This document shows positions 2,026-48,943 of a stretch of 64,000 bases of DNA, one piece after another; the stretch's first letter is position 1, and each line of letters starts with the position of its first letter. The position numbers were made by a program, and so were the translations under genes. Below the pieces are notes generated by a model. It saw only the letters and a list, made by a program, of their open reading frames with translations, searched no databases and had not been told where the DNA came from. The stretch is from an uncultured Methanosarcinales archaeon. GTDB lineage: Archaea; Nanobdellota; Nanobdellia; Woesearchaeales; CAIVOO01. Where the stretch lies: the NCBI GenBank assembly GCA_964485195.1, contig CAZAIK010000004.1, positions 33,673-97,672 of the forward strand, given 5' to 3'.

Positions 2026-3711
2026 TTGTCGGGAATCCATTTTAATCAAAATAATAATTATTTTCTCATGGGGCACGAAACAATAAGGGACGTCAGAAAG
2101 CTTTTCCTCAACAGGGATAATATGGACGAATTCATTCGTTTAACAATCGGCGCCTTGACAGAGATGGTTAACTGGTATACCGGAATCGAGATTGAAAATA
2201 ATTTGAAGATTAATCCAGGCGATTACAAAAATGTGGGGGTGCACAATGGCTGTTCTGTTGAGGAGGCAGGCAAAAGAACAATAGAGCGGATACCGGAAGA
2301 GCTGCCAAAACAGCTGACTGAATCCTTAAACAGTGAACTTGAAGAGATAGTGAATTTCCTGAAAAACGAAATAAGGTTCAATGAGAATTTTATGGGCCAG
2401 ATGCACCCCTCCCAAAACATCGCTTCCTACGCTGCAGGAATAGCGGCTAAGTTTGTGAATGGAAATACCGTTACAGGCAGTGTTTCAAGGGCCACATCCC
2501 AGATTGAGCAAAACAGGGCAGTGCGTTGGCTTTGTGAAATTTTGGGGTATTCCCCTGAAAAAGCATCTGGCACCATTGTTTCAGGGGGGACAAAAGCAAA
2601 TTTAACAGCCCTGGTGATAGCAAGGAACCGTGCATTGTTCCATCTTCAGGAAATAAACAACGAACCGTTTGAGCAGTACCTGTTAACACCTGAGCAAATC
2701 CTGGATTTTAGCGAAAAAAGCTCTGCAATTATGGAAAACCACGGGGTTGCTAAAGTGGGAATGCAGGCGGTTAAGCCAAAGTGCGTCTTATACATGCCGG
2801 AAACAGCACATTACAGCCTTGTGCAGATACCCAATTTTATCGGGTTGGGAATTTCAAATATCAGGAAAATAAAAACAGACAAGAACCACAAAATAATAAT
2901 CCACGAGCTGACAAGACAGATAGAGCTGGACAAGTCAAGGGGAAATTACATAATAGGAATTATAGGTATTGCAGGAACAACAGAGGCGGGGGCTGTGGAT
3001 GACTTGGAATCTCTTGCAGGCATTGCTGAGGCATATAATCTTCACTTTCATATCGATGCGGCACATGGGGGTCCTTTCAGGATGGTGAGGCCAAACTTGT
3101 TCAAGGGGATGGAAAGGGCGGATACTATAACAGTAGACCCTCATAAAATGCTTTATTCACATTACAATGCGGGAGCTTTGCTTGTTAAGAACAAGGAATT
3201 CCTGAACCTGCTCAAGGCAAAAGCAGGATATCTGTTTGACAATGGTGTTTTAAACATAGGTGAGAACAGGATTGCCTGCTCAATGGGGCTGGAATCAGCC
3301 CTGCAAACATATGCTTCGCTGAAAGTTTTTGGTGAGGAAGGCTTGAAAGCACTTCTGAACCACAGCTTGGAGCTCACACAGAATTTTAAGAAGGTTATAG
3401 ATGCAGACAAAGACGAGGTGGGGAGGCACATCAAGCTTGTCAATCCCGAGCCGGACCTTAACCTGCTTTGTTTCAGGTATGAGAACACGGATTTAAGCAA
3501 AGAGGAACTGGACAGAATAAACAAGGAAGCCCAGCGCAGGCTTGAAGAGGAGGGAAAGTTCTATTTTTCAAGCGACAATATGAGCTACAGGCGGGGCATT
3601 GCAGTTCTCAGGGCTGTAATGATGAATCCCTTCACTACGGATGAAATTGTAAAATCGGCCTATGAGAGAACGAAGGACCTGATGTTGGAGGTGAAGAATG
3701 AGGGATTATGA
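2026..3711 (+). CDS. Group II pyridoxal-phosphate-dependent amino-acid decarboxylase, possibly aromatic/tyrosine decarboxylase-like. Unusually long at 561 aa.
   Basis: Motifs SGGTKANLTALVIARNR, HIDAAHGGPF and TVDPHKMLYSHY (PLP-lysine). The first codon is TTG; ATG at 2068 is an alternative start. The end overlaps the TyrRS start by 14 nt. Confidence 0.75.
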   Translation: MSGIHFNQNNNYFLMGHETIRDVRKLFLNRDNMDEFIRLTIGALTEMVNWYTGIEIENNLKINPGDYKNVGVHNGCSVEEAGKRTIERIPEELPKQLTESLNSELEEIVNFLKNEIRFNENFMGQMHPSQNIASYAAGIAAKFVNGNTVTGSVSRATSQIEQNRAVRWLCEILGYSPEKASGTIVSGGTKANLTALVIARNRALFHLQEINNEPFEQYLLTPEQILDFSEKSSAIMENHGVAKVGMQAVKPKCVLYMPETAHYSLVQIPNFIGLGISNIRKIKTDKNHKIIIHELTRQIELDKSRGNYIIGIIGIAGTTEAGAVDDLESLAGIAEAYNLHFHIDAAHGGPFRMVRPNLFKGMERADTITVDPHKMLYSHYNAGALLVKNKEFLNLLKAKAGYLFDNGVLNIGENRIACSMGLESALQTYASLKVFGEEGLKALLNHSLELTQNFKKVIDADKDEVGRHIKLVNPEPDLNLLCFRYENTDLSKEELDRINKEAQRRLEEEGKFYFSSDNMSYRRGIAVLRAVMMNPFTTDEIVKSAYERTKDLMLEVKNEGL

Positions 3712-4915
3712 GCTGGAGAGAATAATAGAGGAGCTTCAGAGGGGAGCTGTGGACTTCATCACGGACAAAGAGCTAGCTTGGAAATTCATCTCTGCTGAAA
3801 AGGAAAGGAGGTCTGTTGTTGTTAAATATGGTGTTGACCCCACTGCGCCTGAGGTACACATCGGCCATACCGTGACTTTGAGGAAATTAAGGCAGTTCCA
3901 GGATTTTGGCCAGCAAGTGACATTTTTGATAGGGGATTTTACCGCGAGAATTGGCGATCCTTCAGGAAAGGATGATGCAAGGAAGCCGATGACGGAAGAA
4001 GAGGTGGCTTCAAATGCAGAAACCTACAAAAAGCAGATATTCAAGATATTAAACCCTGAAAAAACAAACATCGTGTACAATAGTAGCTGGCTCAAACAGC
4101 TTATGCTTGAAAACTGCCTTAAGCTTTTGGGGAGCGGAACTATCAATGACCTGATAAAAAGGAGATCGTTTGCAAAAAGGTTTGAGGAAGGAAAGCCGGT
4201 GTCGGCAATAGAATTAGTATACCCTTTTCTGCAGGGCTACGACTCTGTTTTCTTGAATTCAGATGTTGAGGTAGGAGGAACAGACCAGTACTTCAACCTT
4301 GTTTTCGCGAGGGAATTGCAGAAAAAATATGGGCAGGAGCCTCAAGCAGTAATCACAATGCCCCTCCTTGAGGGGCTTGACGGCGACGAAAAGATGAGCA
4401 AGAGTCTTGGCAATCACGTGGGGATTGATGAGGACCCAAAAACAATGTATGCAAAAATAATGTCCTCAAATGACAGGGTGATGTTCAAGTATTTCAGGCT
4501 GCTCACCCAAATCCCCCTTTCAGATGTGGAGAAACTGGAAAAAGAGGTGGAAAAGGGAAGCTTACACCCGATGGATGTGAAGATGAAACTTGCTTTTGAT
4601 ATTGTTTCGCAGTATCATGGAAACCCGCAGGCTGGCCAGGCGCAGGAAGAGTTTATCAACATCCACAGGCACAAACAAACACCCTCCGAGATGCCGACAT
4701 ATTTCCTTGAATCGGGAAAGCCGGCAACCATAGCGGACGTACTGGTTGAGGGGGGCATTGCAAGCTCAAAAAGCCAGGCAAGAAGGCTGGTCCAGCAAAG
4801 AGGCGTGAGACTTAATAACATAACACTTGAAGATGCGGACAGGCCAATTGAGTTTGAAGACGGGGACACAATCAACGTAGGGAAAAGAAGGTATCTTCAG
4901 TTGAAGTATAAATAG
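3698..4915 (+). CDS. tyrS: Tyrosyl-tRNA synthetase, bacterial type, with a C-terminal S4-like RNA-binding domain.
   Basis: HIGH motif (PEVHIGHTV), KMSKS, FLIGDFTARIGDPSGK, LQGYD, and a C-terminal S4-like segment (SKSQARRLVQQRGVRLNN). 405 aa. Confidence 0.85.
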   Translation: MRDYELERIIEELQRGAVDFITDKELAWKFISAEKERRSVVVKYGVDPTAPEVHIGHTVTLRKLRQFQDFGQQVTFLIGDFTARIGDPSGKDDARKPMTEEEVASNAETYKKQIFKILNPEKTNIVYNSSWLKQLMLENCLKLLGSGTINDLIKRRSFAKRFEEGKPVSAIELVYPFLQGYDSVFLNSDVEVGGTDQYFNLVFARELQKKYGQEPQAVITMPLLEGLDGDEKMSKSLGNHVGIDEDPKTMYAKIMSSNDRVMFKYFRLLTQIPLSDVEKLEKEVEKGSLHPMDVKMKLAFDIVSQYHGNPQAGQAQEEFINIHRHKQTPSEMPTYFLESGKPATIADVLVEGGIASSKSQARRLVQQRGVRLNNITLEDADRPIEFEDGDTINVGKRRYLQLKYK

Positions 4916-5134
4916 ATGAACAAGCAGGGATTCAGCCACTTGTTAAAGCATTCCGAAGAGTTAAAGATTGTTTCTTTTTTTGAGAAGATAAAGAACCTCG
5001 TTGACTCTGTTGACATAGTCATTGACTGCCCCCTTCGGTTGTTGCGAAACCATATGAAAACATCCTGGAGATTCCCGGAAATAATCCGTAAAGCAAGGGC
5101 CAATTCTTTTTAACTTAAAAGAACAGAAAAAATC

Positions 5135-5868
5135 ATGAAAAAGTCAGATATTTTGATTGTAGGAACAGGAATCGCAGGAAGCCTGGCAGCTTATGAACTC
5201 CAAAAAATAGGGATAGATTATACATTAATAACTGAACAGGCAAATCCCCTCAGAAATGTCTCCAGCCTGAGCTTCGGCCATTTCAGGATTGCACGCATTG
5301 GCGAACTGGAGCAGTTTGTGAAAAGATGTGTTTTTGAGTTGGGGGAGGATGAGGAAAAAATGATGCTGGTGTATTCCAACAGCCATCTGACCTCTAGATT
5401 ACTGGGTGAGTTGGGGATGCCATTTGAAAAAAGGAGTTTTGGAGTCATCCCCACAACAAAGGGAAGGGGAGGGGCGTGCTTGTTGGCGAAACAGTCAGAA
5501 AAGGCTCGTTTGTTGATGAAAACGGAAAAGCGGTATTTGACAGGAGAACAGAGAAAATGCTGAAGCAGGATAATTACCACGAAATATTTCCTCAGATAAC
5601 AGAGCGAATCAGAACAAGGGAAAAACAAGGCCACAAGGTTTATTTTATGCAAGGGGATAATATGATTCCCATAACCCCCTATGTTCATTACACTGCGGGA
5701 GGGATTAAAACAGACAGGCTAGGCAGGGTTGAAGGGTGTGAAGACCTTTTTGCAGTGGGTGAATGCCAGGCCAACGGATTCAAAAACAACGGCAGGCTTC
5801 CTGGATATCCCTTCACATCCGCGGTTGTTTACTCAAAAATCCTGGCAGAATATTTCAGTAAGATTTAA
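5135..5868 (+). pseudogene. Frameshifted, miniature FAD-dependent oxidoreductase related to L-aspartate oxidase / succinate dehydrogenase flavoprotein.
   Basis: ORF 5135..5563 carries the N-terminal DILIVGTGIAGSLAAYEL FAD-binding site. ORF 5476..5868 in another frame carries HYTAGGI and LFAVGECQANG...NNGRLPGY. The capping domain is missing; the two pieces total about 245 aa against roughly 500 expected. Confidence 0.5.
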
Positions 5869-6037
5869 ATATGACATATGAGTAACAATGAATATGAGCA
5901 AAGCAGGCAAACAGAATTTGAATGAGTTTGCTAGCCAGTACTCTGGGTTCTATTATTTTTATTGAACAGGGATTCTCTTTTTAGTAGGAATCCCATCACA
6001 AGAAACCTAGAGCCAGCACTATAAAAAAAGTTTGGAG

Positions 6038-6162
6038 CCTCGCTTAGCTCAACGGCAGAGCGTTCGGCTGTAGAAAACACAAGACAAGGTCCCTTATGGG
6101 GTGAGAATGAAATGTGTTCAGCTGATACCGAAAGGTTGCCAGTTCAAATCTGGCAGCGGGGA
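6038..6162 (+). tRNA. tRNA-Tyr (anticodon GUA) with a 53-nt intron at the canonical 37/38 position (6074..6126). C1-G72 pair and A73 discriminator.
   Basis: Cloverleaf folded by hand. Acceptor CCTCGCT/AGCGGGG, D-stem GCTC/GAGC, anticodon stem TTCGG/CCGAA, loop CTGTAG|A, T-arm GCCAG-TTCAAAT-CTGGC. Confidence 0.75.
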
Positions 6163-6177
6163 TACGGAGGTAACAAA

Positions 6178-6450
6178 ATGGAGCTGAAAGAAATAAGAGA
6201 GCACCTGGACAGGCTGGACAATGCGCTTGTCTGGATTTTGGCAGAAAGGATGAGTTTTATTCCGAAGGTTGCGGAATTTAAAGCAAAAAACAAGATGGAG
6301 AGGTACCAGCCCGAGAGGGAAAAGGCAATTCTGGAATCAAAGAAAAAACTGGCAGAACAGCAGGGGGTTAATCCGGCTTTGGCAGAGGGCCTGTTCAAAA
6401 GGATTATAGAGGACGCCCACCGCATCGAAGAGGGAATAATAGGAAAATGA
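6178..6450 (+). CDS. Chorismate mutase, AroQ class.
   Basis: MELKEIREHLDRLDNALVWILAERMSF is the typical CM motif. Starts 16 nt after the tRNA-Tyr 3' end. Its stop overlaps the next start. Confidence 0.8.
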   Translation: MELKEIREHLDRLDNALVWILAERMSFIPKVAEFKAKNKMERYQPEREKAILESKKKLAEQQGVNPALAEGLFKRIIEDAHRIEEGIIGK

Positions 6451-7283
6451 GGCCAGAAACAATCTCAATCATCGGCGGAACCGGCAAGATGGGCAGTATG
6501 TTCAGGAACATCTTTGAGAAAGAAGGATACAAAGTTGTTGTTAGCGGAAAAAACACAGAGATAAGCCCTGAAGAGGCAGCTGCCAAAGGAGATGTTGTAA
6601 TAGTCACGGTTCCCATAAGGAAGACAATCGAAACAATCAAGAAAATAGGGCCCCATGTTAAAAAAGAAGCTCTCCTGACTGATTTTACCTCAGTGAAGGT
6701 GGAGCCTGTCAAGGTAATGCTTGAGAGTTCTGAAGCAGATGTCATTGGGGGGCATCCTGTTTTCGGCCCCACGGTTAAACTGAAGGGACAGTATTATGTC
6801 TTATGCCCTGCCCGGGGAGAACGATACCTTGGCTGGTTCAAGGGATTTCTGGAAGGGAGGGGTTGCAAGGTAATCATCAAGACCCCAGAAGACCATGACA
6901 AGACTATGGGGATAATCCAGTGCTTAACCCATCTGAGTGTAATTGCAATGGGAGGGGTTTTAAAGAGTATGAACATCGATATAGGTAAAACACTTGAGCT
7001 TGCATCCCCAATCTACAAGATGAGAATAGGAATAGTGGGAAGGATACTCAATCAGGACCCCGAACTTTACTCCGACATCCAGATTTACAACTCAAGCTCT
7101 ATGGAGATAGGAGAGGAATACAAAAAATCAATTGAAAAGCTCCTGAAGATAATTGAAGCAAGGGACTTGCAGGCATTTGACAGGTTTTTCAAAGAAGCGA
7201 AAGAATATCTTGGGGACTTTTGCAAACAGGCGCAGGAGGAAAGCGATTATATGCTTAAAAAACTGGCTGAGAGGGAAAAGTGA
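6447..7283 (+). CDS. tyrA: Prephenate dehydrogenase.
   Basis: N-terminal Rossmann motif IIGGTGKMGSMF. GGHPVFGP. Overlaps its neighbours by 4 nt on both sides. Confidence 0.8.
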   Translation: MRPETISIIGGTGKMGSMFRNIFEKEGYKVVVSGKNTEISPEEAAAKGDVVIVTVPIRKTIETIKKIGPHVKKEALLTDFTSVKVEPVKVMLESSEADVIGGHPVFGPTVKLKGQYYVLCPARGERYLGWFKGFLEGRGCKVIIKTPEDHDKTMGIIQCLTHLSVIAMGGVLKSMNIDIGKTLELASPIYKMRIGIVGRILNQDPELYSDIQIYNSSSMEIGEEYKKSIEKLLKIIEARDLQAFDRFFKEAKEYLGDFCKQAQEESDYMLKKLAEREK

Positions 7284-8104
7284 AAACAGGTACATTAGGG
7301 CCCAGGGGAAGCTTCAGCGAAATTGCTGCCAGGAGGCATGATAAACAAACAGAAATTGTTTTCTTCAGGCATATCTATGAGATTTTTGATGCTGTTAGAA
7401 ATGCAGAGGTTGATGAGGGTGTAGTTCCCATTGAAAATATGATTGAAGGCACGGTCAGGGAAGTGCTTGACAGGTTGTATGAGAACGACTTGAAAATCAT
7501 CAAGGAAGTGATCGTTCCGATACACCACTGCCTGGCAGCCCAATCTGATGATTTCAGCAAAATAATCTCGCACCCCCAGGCACTGGCACAGTGCTCTGTT
7601 TTTCTGAAGCAGCATAAGGAAAAATATGTTGAAGTGGAAGAAACAACAAGCACCTCAAAAGCCATGGAGATTGCTGGGGAAAATCTGGAATGCGCAGCCA
7701 TTGGCTCTCCAAGGGCGGCAGAGTTGAATAACCTCAAAATTATAGGCACAGAGATTGAGAATAACGAGAGAAATGCAACAAGATTTATCATAATCAGCAG
7801 GACCCAGGAGGAAAGAAAACAGGAAGACGCGAAGTTCAAAACGAGCATAGCGCTGCATCCTGCTGAAGACCGCCCGGGCCTTTTGTTTGATATTCTCGCT
7901 ATCTTTAAAATACAAAATGTCAACCTCACAAAAATAGAGTCAAGGCCCACTGAAAAAAAGCTGGGGGAGTACATATTTTACATTGACTTTGAAGGACATC
8001 GGCAGGATGAAAATATAAAACCTGTAATAGATTTCTTAAAATCAATTGTTCCAACCATAAAAATATTCGGGAGCTATGAAACAGAGAATGACAGTCAGCA
8101 ATAA
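7280..8104 (+). CDS. pheA: Prephenate dehydratase with a C-terminal ACT domain.
   Basis: TLGPRGSFSE, HPQALAQC, and a C-terminal ACT domain (GLLFDILAIFKIQNVNLTKIESRP). GTG start. Confidence 0.85.
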   Translation: MKTGTLGPRGSFSEIAARRHDKQTEIVFFRHIYEIFDAVRNAEVDEGVVPIENMIEGTVREVLDRLYENDLKIIKEVIVPIHHCLAAQSDDFSKIISHPQALAQCSVFLKQHKEKYVEVEETTSTSKAMEIAGENLECAAIGSPRAAELNNLKIIGTEIENNERNATRFIIISRTQEERKQEDAKFKTSIALHPAEDRPGLLFDILAIFKIQNVNLTKIESRPTEKKLGEYIFYIDFEGHRQDENIKPVIDFLKSIVPTIKIFGSYETENDSQQ

Positions 8105-9185
8105 AGTAAGGAATATGGACCTGAGCGGCGTCAGAAAAATGTTTGAGATGGCATCTAGTATTGAAAACCCTGTCAGCTTAACGATAGGCGAGCCTGATTT
8201 TGACATTCCTGAAAATGTAAAGCAAAAGGCAATAGAGGCAATTAAAAAGGGAAACACAAAATACACTCCCACAACAGGAATCGTCGAATTGAGGAGAGCT
8301 CTGCTGGAAAAACTCAAGAGCGAAAATAATATCACTGTTGGCGAGGAACAGCTCATAGTAACTTCAGCTGCTTCAGGGGCCCTGTCAATAATCCTTACAA
8401 CAATTCTGGAAGAAGGGGATGAAGTTATCATACCTGACCCTTATTTTGTGGCATACAAGCATCTTGTAATACAGAATGAGGCAACCCCCGTATTCGTGCA
8501 TTCAAAAAAGGATTTTTCGCTTAATCTTGAGAAAATAAAAGCAGCAATCAACAGTAAAACAAAGGCAATTTTGATTAATTCTCCCAATAATCCCGCAGGA
8601 AAGGTTTACTCGAAGGAGGAATTAGGAAAACTTGCTGAAATTGCGCGGGAAAACAACCTGCTTATAATCTCGGATGAGATTTATGAGAAATTTGTATTTG
8701 ACAAAAAGCATTTCAGCGTAGGCAGCATTTATGAGAACACAATAACAATAAATGGATTTTCAAAATCCCATGCAATGACAGGCTCAAGAGTTGGCTATTG
8801 TGTTGGGCCAAAGGGAATAATCCAAAACGCAATAAAGGTCCAGCAGGTCAATTTTGTGTGCGCGCCCACAGCGTTTCAGTATGCAGCAATAGAGGCATTA
8901 AAAACTCCTGTGGATAAAGAGCGGGAAGAGTACAGGAAAAGAAGGGATATGATTTATGAAGGGCTGAAAGGCAAGTACGAGATGGTGAAGCCCGAAGGAG
9001 CATTTTACGCTTTTGTAAAATACCCCTACAGGGGCGATAAATTTGTCAGGGACTGCCTTGAAAAAAATCTCCTGGTAGTTCCAGGAAAAACATTCTCAGA
9101 AAAAGATAGTCATTTCAGGATATCGTTTGCAGCAAGCCGGGAAACAATAAAGAAAGGGATAGAAATACTTAATTCCCTTATTTAA
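8076..9185 (+). CDS. Class I aminotransferase (aspartate/aromatic aminotransferase family).
   Basis: LTIGEPDFDIPENV, NSPNNPAGKVY, and SKSHAMTGSRVGY carrying the PLP-lysine. Confidence 0.85.
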   Translation: MKQRMTVSNKVRNMDLSGVRKMFEMASSIENPVSLTIGEPDFDIPENVKQKAIEAIKKGNTKYTPTTGIVELRRALLEKLKSENNITVGEEQLIVTSAASGALSIILTTILEEGDEVIIPDPYFVAYKHLVIQNEATPVFVHSKKDFSLNLEKIKAAINSKTKAILINSPNNPAGKVYSKEELGKLAEIARENNLLIISDEIYEKFVFDKKHFSVGSIYENTITINGFSKSHAMTGSRVGYCVGPKGIIQNAIKVQQVNFVCAPTAFQYAAIEALKTPVDKEREEYRKRRDMIYEGLKGKYEMVKPEGAFYAFVKYPYRGDKFVRDCLEKNLLVVPGKTFSEKDSHFRISFAASRETIKKGIEILNSLI

Positions 9186-15199: not shown

Positions 15200-16687
15200 A
15201 TGGCAGAGGGAAAGGAATCAGAGGCTTCTGTGATCAGGGACAGGTACAGGAAGCTGGAAGAATTGAAAAAAAAGGGGATAAATCCTTATCCTTACAGTTT
15301 CAACAGGAAAGACACTGCATCAGAACTTCTTGCAAAATTTGACAAAAAGCTGAAGGCAGGAGACCATACCAACAGCAGGGCGGTTGTTGCAGGGAGGGTT
15401 ATGGCAAAGCGGGAAATGGGCAAGCTGACTTTCTCGCACTTGCAGGATTCCACAGGAAGAATCCAGATCCTGCTGAAAAGGGACAATGACAAGGATATGC
15501 ATGAACTTTTCAGGCTCTTTGACATAGGCGACATAATAGGTGTCAAGGGAAAGGTTTTCAAGACAAAAACAGGGGAGCTCACAGTAGAGGCTGAAAGCGT
15601 ATCCCTGCTTTCCAAATCACTATACCCCCTGCCGGAAAAGTATCACGGCATTCACGACACGGAGTTAAAATACAGGAGGAGAAGCCTGGACCTGATAATG
15701 GACCCACAGGCGAAGGAGGTTTTCAGGAAGAGGGCAGAGATATACAAGGCAATAAGGGAATTCCTTGAAAAGAATGGTTTTATGGAAGTGCACATACCTA
15801 TTCTGCAGCCGCAGTACGGGGGGGCAAATGCAAGGCCTTTCATGACAAAGATTAATGCCTGGGACATGAATGTTTATCTCAGGATAGCCTATGAAATCCA
15901 CCTGAAAAGGCTTCTGGTCGGGGGCTTTGAGAAAATATATGCCCTGGGCTCCTGCTTCAGGAATGAGGGTGTTGACAAGACGCACAACCCGGAGTTTTCA
16001 ATGATGGAAATACAGTGGGCGTACAGGGACTACAAAGACGCGATGAAACTGACAGAGGAGTTGTGGAATTATGTTGCCAAGAAAGTGCTGGGCAAGACGA
16101 CAATAGAGTATCAGGGAAAAAAGATTGACTTGAAGCCGCCCTGGGAGAGAATAACAGTGAAGGATGCAATCAAGAAGTATGCTGACATTGATGTTGACAA
16201 ACTGACTGATGAGGAACTGAAGGAATTGTTCATAACATACAACCTGAGCATAGAGGGAGACCTCACAAGAGGGGAAATAATAACAGCTCTGTTTGAGGAA
16301 CTGGTTGAGGACAAATTAACAAAACCAACACAGGTCATAGACCATCCCAGGGAGTCAAGCCCGCTTGCAAAGCCCCACAGGGAAAACCCCGAGCTTGTGG
16401 AAAGGGTGGAGCCGTTCATCAACGGCTGGGAAGTGGGCAACTGCTATTCTGAATTGACAGACCCTGTCCTGCAAAGGAAACTGCTGGAAGAGCAGGTTGA
16501 GAAAGGAAGGGGCGGTGATGAAGAGGCCCACCCGATGGATGAGGATTTCATAAGGTCCCTGGAATACGGGCTCCCTCCAAATGTGGGGATAGGAATAGGT
16601 ATTGACAGGATGGTAATGCTCCTGACAAATGCCAAAAGCATAAGGGATGTCATACTGTTTCCGATGATGAAGCCAGAGGGAGATTAA
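15200..16687 (+). CDS. lysS: Lysyl-tRNA synthetase, class II.
   Basis: N-terminal OB fold followed by the class II core (CFRNEGVDKTHNPEFSMMEIQWAY) and motif 3 (GIGIGIDR). Confidence 0.9.
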   Translation: MAEGKESEASVIRDRYRKLEELKKKGINPYPYSFNRKDTASELLAKFDKKLKAGDHTNSRAVVAGRVMAKREMGKLTFSHLQDSTGRIQILLKRDNDKDMHELFRLFDIGDIIGVKGKVFKTKTGELTVEAESVSLLSKSLYPLPEKYHGIHDTELKYRRRSLDLIMDPQAKEVFRKRAEIYKAIREFLEKNGFMEVHIPILQPQYGGANARPFMTKINAWDMNVYLRIAYEIHLKRLLVGGFEKIYALGSCFRNEGVDKTHNPEFSMMEIQWAYRDYKDAMKLTEELWNYVAKKVLGKTTIEYQGKKIDLKPPWERITVKDAIKKYADIDVDKLTDEELKELFITYNLSIEGDLTRGEIITALFEELVEDKLTKPTQVIDHPRESSPLAKPHRENPELVERVEPFINGWEVGNCYSELTDPVLQRKLLEEQVEKGRGGDEEAHPMDEDFIRSLEYGLPPNVGIGIGIDRMVMLLTNAKSIRDVILFPMMKPEGD

Positions 16688-19468: not shown

Positions 19469-21166
19469 TTGATGGAAGAGTTCAAAAAAGAGATTATAAG
19501 AACAGTAGGCAAAATTGTCAATGCAACAGATTCCATGCTTGAGATTCCGCCGGACTCTTCAATGGGAGACTTGGCATTGCCTTGCTTTTCATTTGCAAAG
19601 GACCTGAAGAAAAACCCGGCAGACATAGCGAAAAAGATAGAAGAGGAGGCCAGTCCGGGAGAGTTAATAGAGGAAATCAAGGCATTCGGGCCTTATGTCA
19701 ATTTCTTCATCAACAAGGAAAAGCTTGCGGAATTGACACTGAAGGACATTGTGAAATTAAAGCATTCTTACGGAAAGTCACTGACGGGAAAGGGAAAAAC
19801 CATAATGGTGGAATACTCATCCCCCAGCCTCAACAAGCCCCAGCACCTGGGGCACGTTAGAAACAACGTGCTGGGCTTCTCACTTTCAAGAATCTTTGAA
19901 TTCTCCAGCTACAAGGTGATAAAGGCCAACCTGATGAATGACAGGGGAATCCACATCTGCCAGTCCATGCTTGCCTATAAGGAGTGGGGCGAGAACAAGG
20001 AGCCTGACAAGAAGCCCGACCATTTCGTGGGGGGCTTCTATGTGATGTTCCACAACAATGTGAAAGAAAAGCCAGAGCTTCAGGAAAAGGCCCAGCAAAT
20101 GCTCAGGAAATGGGAGCAGGGCGATAAGGAGATACTGGCCTTGTGGAAAAAGATGAACAACTGGGTCTACAAGGGATTCCAGGAAACCTACAACAGCCTG
20201 GGAGTGGATTTTGACATTTATTATCACGAATCTGAATTTTACCACAAGGGGAAGAAAATCATTGATGAATCCCTGAAAAAAGGCCTGCTGAAAAAGAGCA
20301 AGAACGGTGCTATATACGCAGACCTTGAGGAATTCGGGCTTCCTGAAAAATATGTTTTGAGAGCTGACGGCACAACTGTTTACACAACCCAGGACATTTA
20401 CCTTGCAAAGCTGAAATTTGAACAGTATGACCTGGACAAATCCCTCTATGTCGTAGCAAGCGAGCATAACCTGTATCTTCAGCAGCTTTTCGCCATACTG
20501 AAAAAGATGGGTTTTGGCTTTGCTGACAAGTGCTACCACAGGACATACGGCATGGTTTTTCTCCCTGAAGGAAAGATGAAGTCAAGGGAAGGAACTGTTG
20601 TTGACGCTGATGACAGCATAGGAAGGATGAAAGGGCTGGCAAAAGAGGAAGTTGAAAAGCGGTACGAAAAACTGGGGGAAAAGGAAAAAGACAGGAGAGC
20701 CAAAGCAATAGGGTTGGCAGGGCTAAAGTTTTACATGCTGAAGCAGGATCCGGTGAAGGATATCTATTTTGACCCGAGGGAGTCCATTTCCTTTGAGGGG
20801 GAAACCGGCCCTTACATCCAGTACGCATTTGCCAGGATTTGCTCCATATTGAGAAAATTCGGAAAGCCGATAAACGAAAACATTGATTTTTCCCTGGTGA
20901 AAAAAGAGGAGGAGATAAACTTGATAAAGCATTTGGACTTGTTTTACACTGCTGTGGAAGAGTCAGCAAAGCACTATGACCCTTCCAAAATCGCGCATTA
21001 TCTTACAGGCCTTGCCCAGATGTTCAATAATTTTTACCATAACTGTCCTGTGCTCTCTGAAAGGGAGGACCTTAAAAAAGCGCGCCTCTTGCTGGCATAC
21101 TGCACAAAGCAGGTGCTTGGGAACGGCATCTCACTGCTGGGGATTGAAACCCTGGAAGAGATGTAG
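19469..21166 (+). CDS. argS: Arginyl-tRNA synthetase.
   Basis: SSPSLNKPQHLGHVRNNVLG (HIGH region), a class I core, and a C-terminal DALR-like anticodon-binding domain. Confidence 0.9.
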   Translation: MMEEFKKEIIRTVGKIVNATDSMLEIPPDSSMGDLALPCFSFAKDLKKNPADIAKKIEEEASPGELIEEIKAFGPYVNFFINKEKLAELTLKDIVKLKHSYGKSLTGKGKTIMVEYSSPSLNKPQHLGHVRNNVLGFSLSRIFEFSSYKVIKANLMNDRGIHICQSMLAYKEWGENKEPDKKPDHFVGGFYVMFHNNVKEKPELQEKAQQMLRKWEQGDKEILALWKKMNNWVYKGFQETYNSLGVDFDIYYHESEFYHKGKKIIDESLKKGLLKKSKNGAIYADLEEFGLPEKYVLRADGTTVYTTQDIYLAKLKFEQYDLDKSLYVVASEHNLYLQQLFAILKKMGFGFADKCYHRTYGMVFLPEGKMKSREGTVVDADDSIGRMKGLAKEEVEKRYEKLGEKEKDRRAKAIGLAGLKFYMLKQDPVKDIYFDPRESISFEGETGPYIQYAFARICSILRKFGKPINENIDFSLVKKEEEINLIKHLDLFYTAVEESAKHYDPSKIAHYLTGLAQMFNNFYHNCPVLSEREDLKKARLLLAYCTKQVLGNGISLLGIETLEEM

Positions 21167-39103: not shown

Positions 39104-39190
39104 GGCGGTAATAGTTTAGTGGCAGAATACAGGACTGTGGCAGAATACTGCGGAAATCCTGTGGCCCGGGTTCGATTCCCGGTTACCGCC
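39104..39190 (+). tRNA. tRNA-His (anticodon GUG) with a genome-encoded G-1, a C73 discriminator, and a 15-nt intron (39141..39155).
   Basis: Hand-folded. Acceptor GCGGTAA/TTACCGC, G-1 at 39104 pairs with C73. Anticodon stem CAGGA/TCCTG, loop CTGTGG|A. T-arm CCGGG-TTCGATT-CCCGG. Confidence 0.7.
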
Positions 39191-39206
39191 CTGTCATATT
39201 TTATAG

Positions 39207-39531: not shown

Positions 39532-40794
39532 ATGACTGAATTAACACCAAAAGGGATGAGGGACTTTTTGCCTGAAGAGAAGATAATCAGGGCCAGGATA
39601 GTTGAGACCCTGAAGGAAATGTTTGAAAGGTATGGCTTTAATCCCCTGGAAACACCTGCCCTGGAAAGACTGGAGGTTCTCACCTCAAAATATGCAGGAG
39701 GAGAGGAAATCCTTAAGGAAATTTTCAAGCTGAAGGACCAGGGCGGAAGGGAACTGGGATTGAGATATGACTTAACAGTTCCGCTTGCAAGGGTAATGGC
39801 GATGAATCCCGAGCTCAAGATGCCTTTCAAGAGGTATCAGATTGGAAAGGTATGGCGGGACGGCCCCATAAAGCTGGGAAGGTACAGGGAATTCTGGCAG
39901 GCAGATGTCGACATTGTCGGATGCAGGTCGGTGAAGGCAGATGCGGAAATACTTGCCCTTGCAAACTCTGTTTTCAACGCTCTCGGGCTTGACGTTGTCA
40001 TTCAGGTCAATAACAGGAAGCTCTTGAACAGGATAATTGAATATTGCGATGCCAAGGGAAAAGAGGAGGATGTTATTCTTTCCCTTGACAAGCTTGAAAA
40101 GATTGGGGAGAAAGGAGTAAAAAAGGAACTGGAAGAGAAAGGGATTGATAAGAAAACAATTGAAAAAATAATGAAAACAATCTCCATTGAAAACCTGGAC
40201 GAGCTGGAAAAGCAAATAGGAAAGTGCGAAGGCATTAATGAATTAAGGGAATTGTCGGGATTAACAAACTTGTTTGGGGCTGAAATAAAAATAACCCCTA
40301 CACTTGCGAGAGGTTTGAGTTATTACACCGGCCCTGTTTATGAGGTTTTCCTGAAGGAAGGAGAAATCAAGTCTTCCCTTGCCGGCGGGGGGCGCTATGA
40401 CAAAATGATTGCACAGCTGATAAGGAAGAAGGAGGATGTTCCTGCAGCAGGAATAAGCTTTGGCATTGACGTAATCTCCGAAGCTATCAAGCTGGAGAAA
40501 AAAATGAAATTAAGTAAAAGTGTTGCTGATGTCTATGTTGTCCCGATAGGTGACGTGATGGAAAAGGCAGTTTCCTTATTGCAGGTCTTGAGAAGAAATG
40601 GGGTCAAGGCTGACATTGACCTTATGGAGAGGGGCATTTCCAAAAATCTTAGTTATGCGAATTCATATGGTATTCCTTTTGTGATTTTTCTCGGGCAGAA
40701 GGAGGTGGGGCAGAACAAGGTCAAATTGAGGGACATGGAGAAGGGGGAGGAAAAGCTGTTAAGTGCTGATGAAGTTATGAAGATTTTACGATGA
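39532..40794 (+). CDS. hisS: Histidyl-tRNA synthetase.
   Basis: TPKGMRDFLPEE motif 1 region, class II core, GGGRYD motif 3. Confidence 0.9.
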   Translation: MTELTPKGMRDFLPEEKIIRARIVETLKEMFERYGFNPLETPALERLEVLTSKYAGGEEILKEIFKLKDQGGRELGLRYDLTVPLARVMAMNPELKMPFKRYQIGKVWRDGPIKLGRYREFWQADVDIVGCRSVKADAEILALANSVFNALGLDVVIQVNNRKLLNRIIEYCDAKGKEEDVILSLDKLEKIGEKGVKKELEEKGIDKKTIEKIMKTISIENLDELEKQIGKCEGINELRELSGLTNLFGAEIKITPTLARGLSYYTGPVYEVFLKEGEIKSSLAGGGRYDKMIAQLIRKKEDVPAAGISFGIDVISEAIKLEKKMKLSKSVADVYVVPIGDVMEKAVSLLQVLRRNGVKADIDLMERGISKNLSYANSYGIPFVIFLGQKEVGQNKVKLRDMEKGEEKLLSADEVMKILR

Positions 40795-48852: not shown

Positions 48853-48942
48853 AGCCCCGTAGTCTAGCGGCCAAGGATGTCAGGCTCTGGAGACTGGTTC
48901 AGGAGAAACCTGGAGACCGCGGTTCAAATCCGCGCGGGGCTA
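48853..48942 (+). tRNA. tRNA-Gln (anticodon CUG) with A1-U72 and a 17-nt intron (48891..48907).
   Basis: Hand-folded. Acceptor AGCCCCG/CGGGGCT, D-arm GTCT-AGCGGCCAA-GGAT, anticodon stem TCAGG/CCTGG, loop CTCTGG|A, T-arm CGCGG-TTCAAAT-CCGCG, discriminator A. Confidence 0.7.
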
Positions 48943-48943
48943 C

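Follow-up and report, generated by a model that had tools for sequence, protein, structure and literature searches.

The tyrS locus and its host

We analysed a window of 64,000 nucleotides from contig CAZAIK010000004.1 (GenBank assembly GCA_964485195.1), in which tyrS, encoding a bacterial-type tyrosyl-tRNA synthetase (TyrRS), lies upstream of a gene for a tRNA-Tyr of the archaeal type. The difference between G1-C72 and C1-G72 in tRNA-Tyr is a textbook species barrier in aminoacylation, and the basis of the most-used orthogonal pair in genetic-code expansion. Sequence comparisons of the window TyrRS with its archaeal and bacterial relatives suggest that a rebuilt patch at the acceptor end probably lets this bacterial-type enzyme charge an archaeal-style tRNA-Tyr across the supposed barrier between the domains. 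The features of the synthetase and tRNA genes, all on the + strand, are the following.

3698-4915: tyrS, bacterial-type TyrRS of the TyrZ subfamily, 405 residues (TIGR00234; Pfam PF00579, PF22421 and PF01479; best PDB matches 6BYQ and 1H3E)
3824-3826: Lys43, TyrZ-type binding of the tyrosine hydroxyl group, equivalent of Thermus thermophilus Lys41 (PMC1934993)
3857-3868: HIGH motif, H54-I-G-H57; neither His varies among the 21 archaeal members described below
4145-4168: CP1 acceptor-end motif, N150-D-L-I-K154-R155-R156-S157; putative adaptation to C1-G72, from column counts and alignments
4289-4291: Tyr198 in GGTDQ-Y-FN, equivalent of T. thermophilus Arg198 and Methanocaldococcus jannaschii Arg174
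4391-4405: KMSKS motif, residues 232-236; K232-K235 are invariant in all 120 sequences of the homologue set, and residue 236 is S or T
4472-4474: Asp259, equivalent of the T. thermophilus residue of that number, by which anticodon base G34 is read (PMC1934993); invariant in A1 and A2
4676-4912: C-terminal S4-like domain (residues 327-388 match PF22421 with 35.1 bits, cut-off 27, and PF01479 with 31.5 bits, cut-off 22.8)
6038-6162: tRNA-Tyr(GUA), archaeal type; exons 6038-6073 and 6127-6162, intron 6074-6126, anticodon 6070-6072

The host contig is archaeal and Woesearchaeota-like. Archaeal markers encoded in the window include L10P with the archaeal/eukaryal insert, L1, L44e, S24e, Rpb7/RpoE, a proteasome subunit and aCPSF1/FttA. 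The aCPSF1 sequence is 82% identical to a protein from 'Candidatus Woesearchaeota archaeon', and the named relatives among its best 120 matches are all archaeal, mostly from Woesearchaeota, Nanoarchaeota or Nanoarchaeia. An Rfam scan of the window returned three tRNAs, the tRNA-Tyr with its intron and two more that probably contain introns as well. GC content is even throughout the region. Exactly the same locus is present in an independent Logan assembly (L001).

Identity and origin of the synthetase

The sequence-only reading of this DNA had noted a bacterial-type TyrRS within 3698-6162, and profile searches with the gene at 3698-4915 bear this out. The product matches TIGR00234 (tyrS) with 370.5 bits over residues 12-404 (cut-off 113.8), and the Pfam families tRNA-synt_1b, SYY_C-terminal and S4 all score above their cut-offs. 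The closest solved structures are TyrZ-type (6BYQ, 344 bits; 6BQY, 311 bits; T. thermophilus 1H3E, 287 bits); TyrS-type structures (Bacillus, Staphylococcus, E. coli-type) score 105-135 bits, with 2TS1 and 1JII at 122-135 bits. The full-length tyrS match, the HIGH and KMSKS motifs, Lys43, the closeness to Thermus-type enzymes and the C-terminal S4-like domain place the protein in the TyrZ subfamily. It shares with the Thermus-type TyrZ structures (1H3E, 6BYQ, 6BQY) the architecture, the Lys at the tyrosine-OH site, Asp259 and the residue numbering, which is collinear with T. thermophilus TyrRS from residue 112 to 282. The archaeal TyrRS model NF006330, by contrast, gives 109.9 bits, below its cut-off of 220. 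Archaeal enzymes have about 310-340 residues and no S4 domain, so that the window TyrRS stands outside that family, with an extra S4-like domain and only about 26-29% identity to the M. jannaschii enzyme.

The nearest relatives of the window TyrRS are found in L002, from an uncultured archaeon (68% identity), and in two sequences named 'Candidatus Woesearchaeota archaeon' (55% and 52%). Bacterial homologues (Atribacteria, Abyssobacteria, Aminicenantes and others) begin at about 50% identity and span 44-50%. The tree and the column counts given below were made from the 120 best TyrRS homologues, 21 archaeal and 99 bacterial. In the neighbour-joining tree the 21 archaeal sequences form one clade inside bacterial TyrZ (100/100 bootstraps), on branches longer than those of the sister sequences (0.52 versus 0.34). 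We inspected the contigs of eleven clade members, and all have archaeal-looking neighbourhoods. Altogether, 13 independent contigs, which come from different samples and assemblers, carry the bacterial-type tyrS in an archaeal context. A single clade in archaeal neighbourhoods argues for one acquisition from Bacteria followed by diversification in archaea, and points to an ancestor of the Woesearchaeota-like lineage as the recipient of a TyrZ-type tyrS. A full-text literature search returned no description of an archaeal clade of bacterial-type TyrRS, nor of the CP1 motif switch described below.

The linked tRNA-Tyr

The tRNA-Tyr at 6038-6162 matches Rfam RF00005 with 52.2 bits. Its acceptor stem, CCUCGCU/AGCGGGG, contains the C1-G72 pair and a U3-G70 wobble, followed by discriminator A73; the anticodon is GUA and the variable loop, AGGUU, has 5 nt. 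The archaeal character, C1-G72 pair and short variable loop claimed for this tRNA before are thus all present, and to them we add a 53-nt intron after nucleotide 37, with borders inferred from the cloverleaf. ARAGORN did not call this tRNA-Tyr in the window, because of the intron. The description of the tRNA as adjacent to tyrS calls for a slight adjustment: it lies 1.1 kb downstream, with a 65-residue open reading frame (ORF) and a degenerate FAD-protein gene in between.

To place this arrangement, we surveyed tRNAs and gene context at 13 archaeal tyrS loci, with gene tables for 11 related loci and 78 bacterial loci for comparison. In seven of the 13 archaeal loci, tyrS has an intron-bearing tRNA-Tyr with C1-G72 no more than 4.3 kb away. 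Five of the linked copies were parsed in detail: all have GUA, C1-G72, A73, a 5-nt variable loop and an intron of 51-58 nt after nucleotide 37, at the canonical 37/38 site of protein-spliced introns, and they share a conserved anticodon-intron helix (GGCUG/CAGC[UC]), a candidate element of a bulge-helix-bulge motif. Two further copies (L084, L091) were found by pattern search, and C1-G72 is present in all seven. The linked tRNA-Tyr genes are of the ordinary archaeal kind, and neither G1-C72 nor a long arm like that of bacteria is seen in them. Relative to tyrS they are found 17 nt upstream, at 0.2, 0.7, 1.1, 1.3 and 4 kb downstream, and at 4.2 kb on the opposite strand. Because distance and orientation vary, the linkage appears to have been maintained rather than inherited as one arrangement.

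Several of these tRNA-Tyr genes stand about 15-40 nt upstream of a coding gene on the same strand (window 6038-9185, L002 15296-16293, L091 10-152, L084 10513-10660, L085 9443-9601). In the window and in L002 the tRNA directly precedes tyrosine-biosynthesis genes (chorismate mutase, prephenate dehydrogenase), the order tRNA-Tyr then prephenate dehydrogenase being common to both, and in L091 it stands before tyrS itself. Such an order suggests that tRNA and mRNA are co-transcribed, which might tie the supply of tRNA-Tyr to tyrosine metabolism. A block of about 75 nt is conserved 5' of the tRNA-Tyr between the window (5925-6037) and L002 (15205-15295), two genomes with only 68% identity between their TyrRS. 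Within the block are the inverted repeat GGATTC...GAATCC and an A/T-rich box (window, TATTTTTATTGAA; L002, TATATTTATTGAA); the block may represent a promoter together with the binding site of a regulator. A scan for sigma-70 promoters and terminators gave no more matches than shuffled sequence, with bacterial models that are not applicable to archaea.

Conserved and changed residues in the synthetase

The 21 archaeal members all conserve the HIGH motif, Asp80, Tyr175, Gln179, Asp182, Gln197, K232-K235 and Asp259, with S or T at position 236. Lys43 is kept in 20 of them, the last having an alignment gap at this position. Given the conservation of the catalytic residues and of Asp259, the TyrRS of this clade is almost certainly an active, anticodon-reading enzyme.

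Thirteen positions sharply split the archaeal clade from the 99 bacterial sequences, and nine of these fall within residues 127-177 of CP1 (hypergeometric P = 2e-6), the peptide that set species-specific 1-72 recognition in the transplant experiments of Wakasugi et al. 1998, as these are cited in PMC1934993. The motif at 150-157 reads A-R-M-L-E-R-D-D in bacteria and N-x-x-x-K-R-(K/R)-S in the archaeal clade. Inspection of the acceptor-binding residues, which had been proposed as a check on the synthetase, gave the following counts.

Position 150: Asn in 21/21 archaeal sequences, Ala in 98/99 bacterial sequences
Position 154 (E154K): Lys in 21/21 archaeal, Glu in 98/99 bacterial
Position 156 (D156 to K/R): Lys or Arg in 16/21 archaeal and never acidic, Asp or Glu in 95/99 bacterial
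Position 157 (D157S): Ser in 17/21 archaeal, Asp in 97/99 bacterial
Position 198 (K198 to Y/F/H): Tyr, Phe or His in 17/21 archaeal, Lys in 85/99 bacterial
Position 203: Phe in 21/21 archaeal, Val in 93/99 bacterial

With the M. jannaschii sequence of PDB 1J1U as the reference, hhalign and an ungapped phmmer alignment of 55 residues both superimpose R155-R156-S157 of the window TyrRS on R131-R132-S133 of the M. jannaschii enzyme, and residue 198 on R174. The C1-G72 pair is read in M. jannaschii by Arg132 and Arg174, and in yeast by their counterparts Arg151 and Arg193; Arg174 contacts C1, and T. thermophilus Arg198 contacts A73 (PMC1934993). The window TyrRS has the equivalent of Arg132 (R156), and Tyr198 and Phe199 in place of Arg174 and Lys175. 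Position 156 also aligns with Glu152 of Bacillus stearothermophilus TyrRS, a negative discriminator that repels non-cognate tRNAs electrostatically (PMC9976931).

We considered whether the R-R-S motif had come in by recombination with an archaeal tyrS. This was rejected as the simplest reading, since the residues on either side of the motif (FAKRFEEGKP) agree with the bacterial consensus; the similarity to archaeal TyrRS looks convergent, by point substitution, rather than recombinational.

For a wider view we aligned the 150 best TyrZ sequences from 1.84 billion cluster representatives, a diverse set of 33-52% identity. Position 156 is acidic in 118/148 and basic in 17/148. The full combination of N150 with K154-R155-K/R156-S/G157 occurs among the 150 representatives only in the window protein (P0001), in P0008 from the same clade, and in the more divergent P0278 and P0297, whose contigs are too short for taxonomy. 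P0278 is about 41% identical to the window TyrRS, and its contig, L091, is the one with a C1-G72, intron-bearing tRNA-Tyr 17 nt upstream of tyrS, which extends the association of the motif with an archaeal tRNA-Tyr to a member at this level of identity.

The C-terminal S4-like domain is the most diverged region of the protein, with 35% identity between archaeal sequences versus 47% between bacterial ones, and several archaeal members fall below the Pfam models for it. Its signature residues S357, R363, Q367 and G395 are largely kept in the clade. Retention of the domain is compatible with binding of the tRNA body, since human mitochondrial TyrRS keeps it together with an arm-less tRNA.

Probable recognition of the C1-G72 tRNA-Tyr

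Two outcomes had been suggested for the apparent mismatch between enzyme and tRNA: adapted recognition, or a TyrRS that is not the housekeeping enzyme. We favour the first with reasonable, though not strong, confidence: this TyrRS appears to have adapted to the C1-G72 tRNA-Tyr, and would charge it as the working TyrRS of the cell. The bacterial origin of the enzyme, its retained catalytic and G34-reading residues, the change in CP1 and the linkage to the tRNA argue for this. In sequence, the segments that touch the acceptor end in solved TyrRS-tRNA complexes are changed in all 21 members, and the archaeal R-R-S motif is matched.

In the proposed scheme, an ancestor of the Woesearchaeota-like (DPANN) lineage would have acquired a TyrZ-type tyrS once and kept the Rossmann core, the helical anticodon-binding domain, the S4-like domain and the reading of G34 by Asp259. 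Replacement of E154-R155-D156-D157 by K-R-(K/R)-S, and of Lys198 by an aromatic residue, would have recreated the Arg-Arg-Ser motif that reads C1-G72. The same change in CP1 would also have removed the acidic residue by which Bacillus TyrRS keeps non-cognate tRNAs away. The changed enzyme could then tyrosylate an ordinary archaeal tRNA-Tyr (C1-G72, A73, GUA, no long arm), the linked tRNA being its presumed substrate, and the S4-like domain may bind the anticodon stem or tRNA body in the absence of a long arm, as in mitochondrial TyrRS. This mechanistic reasoning draws on the contacts seen in the archaeal and yeast enzymes and on the data for Bacillus Glu152.

The TyrZ enzyme would most likely serve as the working TyrRS of the cell, which presumes that no other TyrRS is present. 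A tblastn search with M. jannaschii TyrRS across 234 kb of archaeal DNA (the window plus the flanks of its relatives, up to 10 kb) recovered only TyrZ genes, and no second tRNA-Tyr is present in these 234 kb.

Several points weigh against adaptation to C1-G72 in a housekeeping enzyme. Position 156 is N, S or T, and so non-basic, in 5 of the 21 archaeal sequences. R156 on its own is also seen in about 11% of bacterial TyrZ representatives, there always combined with E154 and D157; the 17 wider representatives that are basic at this position mostly read E-R-R-D. Base 35 is read in T. thermophilus by Asp423, for which the window TyrRS has Arg, at a position that is variable among bacterial TyrZ too. 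The proposed switch in specificity is based on alignment to the co-crystal structures of other enzymes. The search for a second TyrRS covered 234 kb rather than whole genomes and hence is not decisive. Finally, tyrS is coupled to a decarboxylase gene (see below), and this conserved coupling, usually with a methyltransferase gene as well, could mean a specialised rather than a general role.

A variant of the preferred explanation, not exclusive of it, is that the substitutions have relaxed 1-72 specificity instead of switching it. The clade would have lost 1-72 discrimination in the manner of vertebrate mitochondrial and apicoplast TyrRS, and specificity would come from the anticodon, from A73 and from antideterminants that other tRNAs carry. 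In human mitochondrial TyrRS this very region combines features of the bacterial and the archaeal enzymes, and tRNAs with G1-C72 or C1-G72 are charged equally (PMC9976931); the apicoplast TyrRS of Plasmodium disregards the acceptor stem (PMC6310243). The residues at position 156, which are not uniformly basic in the clade, agree with such a loss, and the longer branches and less conserved C-terminal domain fit a partly relaxed constraint. However, K154, N150 and F203 are fixed in all 21 members and S157 is the exact archaeal residue, which argues for a maintained new state rather than drift. We regard loss of discrimination as possible, and a good deal less probable than adapted recognition.

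Comparison with known TyrRS/tRNA pairs

The window TyrRS differs from bacterial TyrZ in that its host and tRNA are archaeal (C1-G72, no long arm), and in having K/R/S and Tyr where bacterial TyrZ have the acidic patch E154/D156/D157 and Lys or Arg at 198. With archaeal and eukaryal TyrRS (1J1U; yeast 2DLC) it shares the kind of partner tRNA and R-R-S at the position that reads C1-G72, but has Tyr-Phe instead of M. jannaschii R174-K175, and bacterial-like flanks around the motif.

Human mitochondrial (2PID) and Plasmodium apicoplast TyrRS are likewise bacterial-type enzymes that have kept the S4-like domain; both ignore the 1-72 pair, and the mitochondrial tRNA is without a long arm (PMC5370408, PMC9976931, PMC6310243). 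These organellar enzymes are TyrS-like and act with degenerate organellar tRNAs, in contrast to a TyrZ enzyme with a canonical archaeal tRNA-Tyr, and the window TyrRS matches 2PID with only 93 bits. The premise of the sequence-only reading, that a bacterial TyrRS needs G1-C72 and a long arm, is softer in view of the mitochondrial enzyme, which is indifferent to 1-72 and has an arm-less tRNA (PMC5370408, PMC9976931). By analogy, the window TyrRS appears most like archaeal TyrRS at the acceptor end, and most like mitochondrial TyrRS with regard to the arm-less tRNA.

The 1-72 difference has been argued to block transfer of TyrRS between the domains (PMC5370408, PMC1934993). The published natural exception is the mirror image of the present case: certain Candidate Phyla Radiation (CPR) bacteria possess an archaeal-type TyrRS (Mukai et al. 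2017, PMC5370408). In CPR bacteria the tRNA changed to C1-G72, often keeping its variable arm (PMC5370408), whereas in the archaeal clade the tRNA is unchanged and the enzyme appears to have changed. As the change involves a handful of residues in the species-specificity peptide, it offers a testable minimal set of mutations for a specificity switch. The clade could also show, as a natural model, in what way the bacterial-type TyrRS of organelles manage with arm-less tRNAs, and may supply new synthetase/tRNA pairs. More broadly, it would imply that bacterial versions can replace core translation enzymes in DPANN archaea, even where the identity rules are 'incompatible'.

The decarboxylase and other neighbours of tyrS

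The other genes around tyrS and the tRNA-Tyr are the following.

1340-1939, - strand: ACT-less prephenate dehydratase-like gene (PF00800, 122 bits), divergent from the decarboxylase-tyrS operon
2026-3711, + strand: group II decarboxylase dependent on pyridoxal phosphate (PLP) (PF00282, 170 bits); the NCBI-called start is probably 2068, which gives 547 residues
4916-5113, + strand: 65-residue ORF without a family match, in the slot of the Methyltransf_32 gene of relatives
5135-5868, + strand: degenerate FAD_binding_2 (NadB/SdhA-like) gene, with two domain ends in two overlapping frames
6175-6450, + strand: chorismate mutase (Pfam CM_2)
6447-7283, + strand: prephenate dehydrogenase (PDH_N/PDH_C)
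7280-8104, + strand: prephenate dehydratase with ACT domain (PDT+ACT)
8076-9185, + strand: class I/II aminotransferase (Aminotran_1_2)

The stop of the window decarboxylase (547-561 residues) overlaps the start of tyrS by 14 nt. By tblastn and gene tables, L003 and L082-L090 have a homologous decarboxylase directly upstream of tyrS, the two genes overlapping by up to 20 nt or standing up to 18 nt apart, although these decarboxylases are only 30-35% identical to that of the window. The closest relative, L002, has tyrS without a decarboxylase within 10 kb. None of the 78 bacterial loci has a decarboxylase beside tyrS, which argues that the operon was built in archaea and not imported.

These observations bear on the second outcome suggested for the mismatch: TyrZ would be a specialised TyrRS beside an archaeal-type enzyme, co-expressed with the decarboxylase, and would, for example, keep Tyr-tRNA charged or sense tyrosine during its decarboxylation, as proposed for the tyramine operons of lactic acid bacteria, and it would still act on the archaeal tRNA-Tyr. 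What keeps this reading alive is the tight coupling of decarboxylase and tyrS, which persists across the clade despite the low identity of the decarboxylases and, being absent from the bacterial loci, was assembled in archaea. The window neighbourhood is moreover given to aromatic amino acids, with chorismate mutase, prephenate dehydrogenase, two prephenate dehydratase genes and an aminotransferase, and the N-terminal half of the decarboxylase aligns with the structures of Lactobacillus and Enterococcus tyrosine decarboxylase (TDC) at 92-96 bits.

On the other hand, the decarboxylase falls below every NCBIfam equivalog cut-off. It scores 107.5 bits against 905.3 for the Enterococcus TDC model (TIGR03811), and higher, yet still below the cut-off, for PanP (197/606) and MfnA (158/299). 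The Rfam gathering scan of the window found no T-box leader or other element besides the three tRNAs, and no tyrosine/tyramine antiporter or permease is found among the neighbours of tyrS in the window and 11 related loci. Redundant synthetases are unusual in small-genome archaea, which we also count against a second TyrRS, and L002 keeps tyrS without the decarboxylase. A specialised second TyrRS therefore seems to us unlikely, somewhat more so than loss of 1-72 discrimination.

The analogy with the tyramine operons of Enterococcus and Lactobacillus, drawn in the sequence-only reading, is weak. What stands is a tyrS directly beside a PLP-dependent decarboxylase, which for most clade members is translationally coupled upstream of it. 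Compared with the tyramine operons the order of the genes is the opposite, with the decarboxylase first in the window, the synthetase is TyrZ-type and the pairing arose in archaea. With no TDC equivalog, T-box or antiporter, and with L002 lacking the decarboxylase, the likeness to the tdc cluster of lactic acid bacteria appears superficial.

We also tried to assign a substrate to the decarboxylase from the names of its matches (PanP, MfnA, DABA decarboxylase, GAD, TDC). These conflict, and all are below cut-off or only 27-35% identical, so that no assignment was retained. The nearest relatives outside the group are 27-34% identical and carry mixed names, and the best PDB matches are DABA-decarboxylase-like.

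A Methyltransf_32 gene lies 3' of tyrS in nine of the 11 longer archaeal loci (L002, L003, L082, L084 and L086-L090), not including the window. The neighbourhoods thus contain a clade-wide module of a PLP decarboxylase (547-628 residues), a bacterial-type tyrS and a Methyltransf_32 methyltransferase of about 200 residues; comparison of the loci indicates that the window has lost the methyltransferase and L002 the decarboxylase. Frequent neighbours of the module are AsnC-family regulators, a PPDK_N and HD gene pair, and a MazE/AbrB-like protein of 310-320 residues. The ACT-less prephenate dehydratase-like gene at 1340-1939 has a counterpart in L002 (47% identity), where it neighbours tyrS on the upstream side.

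A bolder reading would combine complete replacement of the archaeal TyrRS, by a convergent rewrite of three or four CP1 residues, with the clade-wide decarboxylase/Methyltransf_32 operon beside the tRNA into a new tyrosine-handling module, whose partner enzymes act on tyrosine, tyramine or tRNA. We put this forward as a tentative proposal that may well not hold in full. If it were true, the minimal determinants of the 1-72 switch would be identified, and the clade would represent a new class of TyrRS/tRNA pairs.

An artefact is extremely improbable, be it a bacterial fragment brought onto an archaeal contig by mis-assembly or mis-binning, or a gene in decay and without function: composite DPANN/CPR bins are sometimes cross-contaminated (PMC5370408) and a degenerate FAD-protein gene lies right beside tyrS, but misassembly and misbinning are excluded by 13 independent contigs (one of them the Logan assembly of the locus) on which archaeal genes and intron-bearing tRNAs flank tyrS on both sides, the reading frame is intact, the catalytic residues are conserved over 21 diverged sequences, and GC content is uniform across the region.

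Other features of the window

The FAD_binding_2 gene at 5135-5868 retains profile positions 1-74 and 337-411 of 414 and resembles the flavoprotein of L-aspartate oxidase or succinate dehydrogenase. It has the same structure in the independent Logan contig L001, which argues for a real pseudogene or minimal remnant.

Long-intron tRNAs are under-called by ARAGORN and by filtered cmscan alike. The tRNA-Tyr at 10513-10638 of L084 (GUA, C1-G72, intron) was missed by the Rfam gathering scan and recovered by a tblastn cross-hit and a regular-expression search. Two oversized tRNAs in the window, at 39105-39191 (87 nt) and 48853-48943 (91 nt), were called by ARAGORN as one tRNA-Ala(GGC) and one of undetermined type with a 4-base 'anticodon', ctgg. 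They are probably intron-containing archaeal tRNAs that were mis-parsed.

Three further synthetases are encoded in the window. A class II synthetase of the Asp/Lys/Asn type at 15200-16687 (495 residues; PF00152 and an OB anticodon-binding domain) has a LysRS-like N-terminus; should it prove to be a class II LysRS, this archaeon would have one more synthetase of bacterial style. The other two are ArgRS at 19469-21166 and HisRS at 39532-40794.

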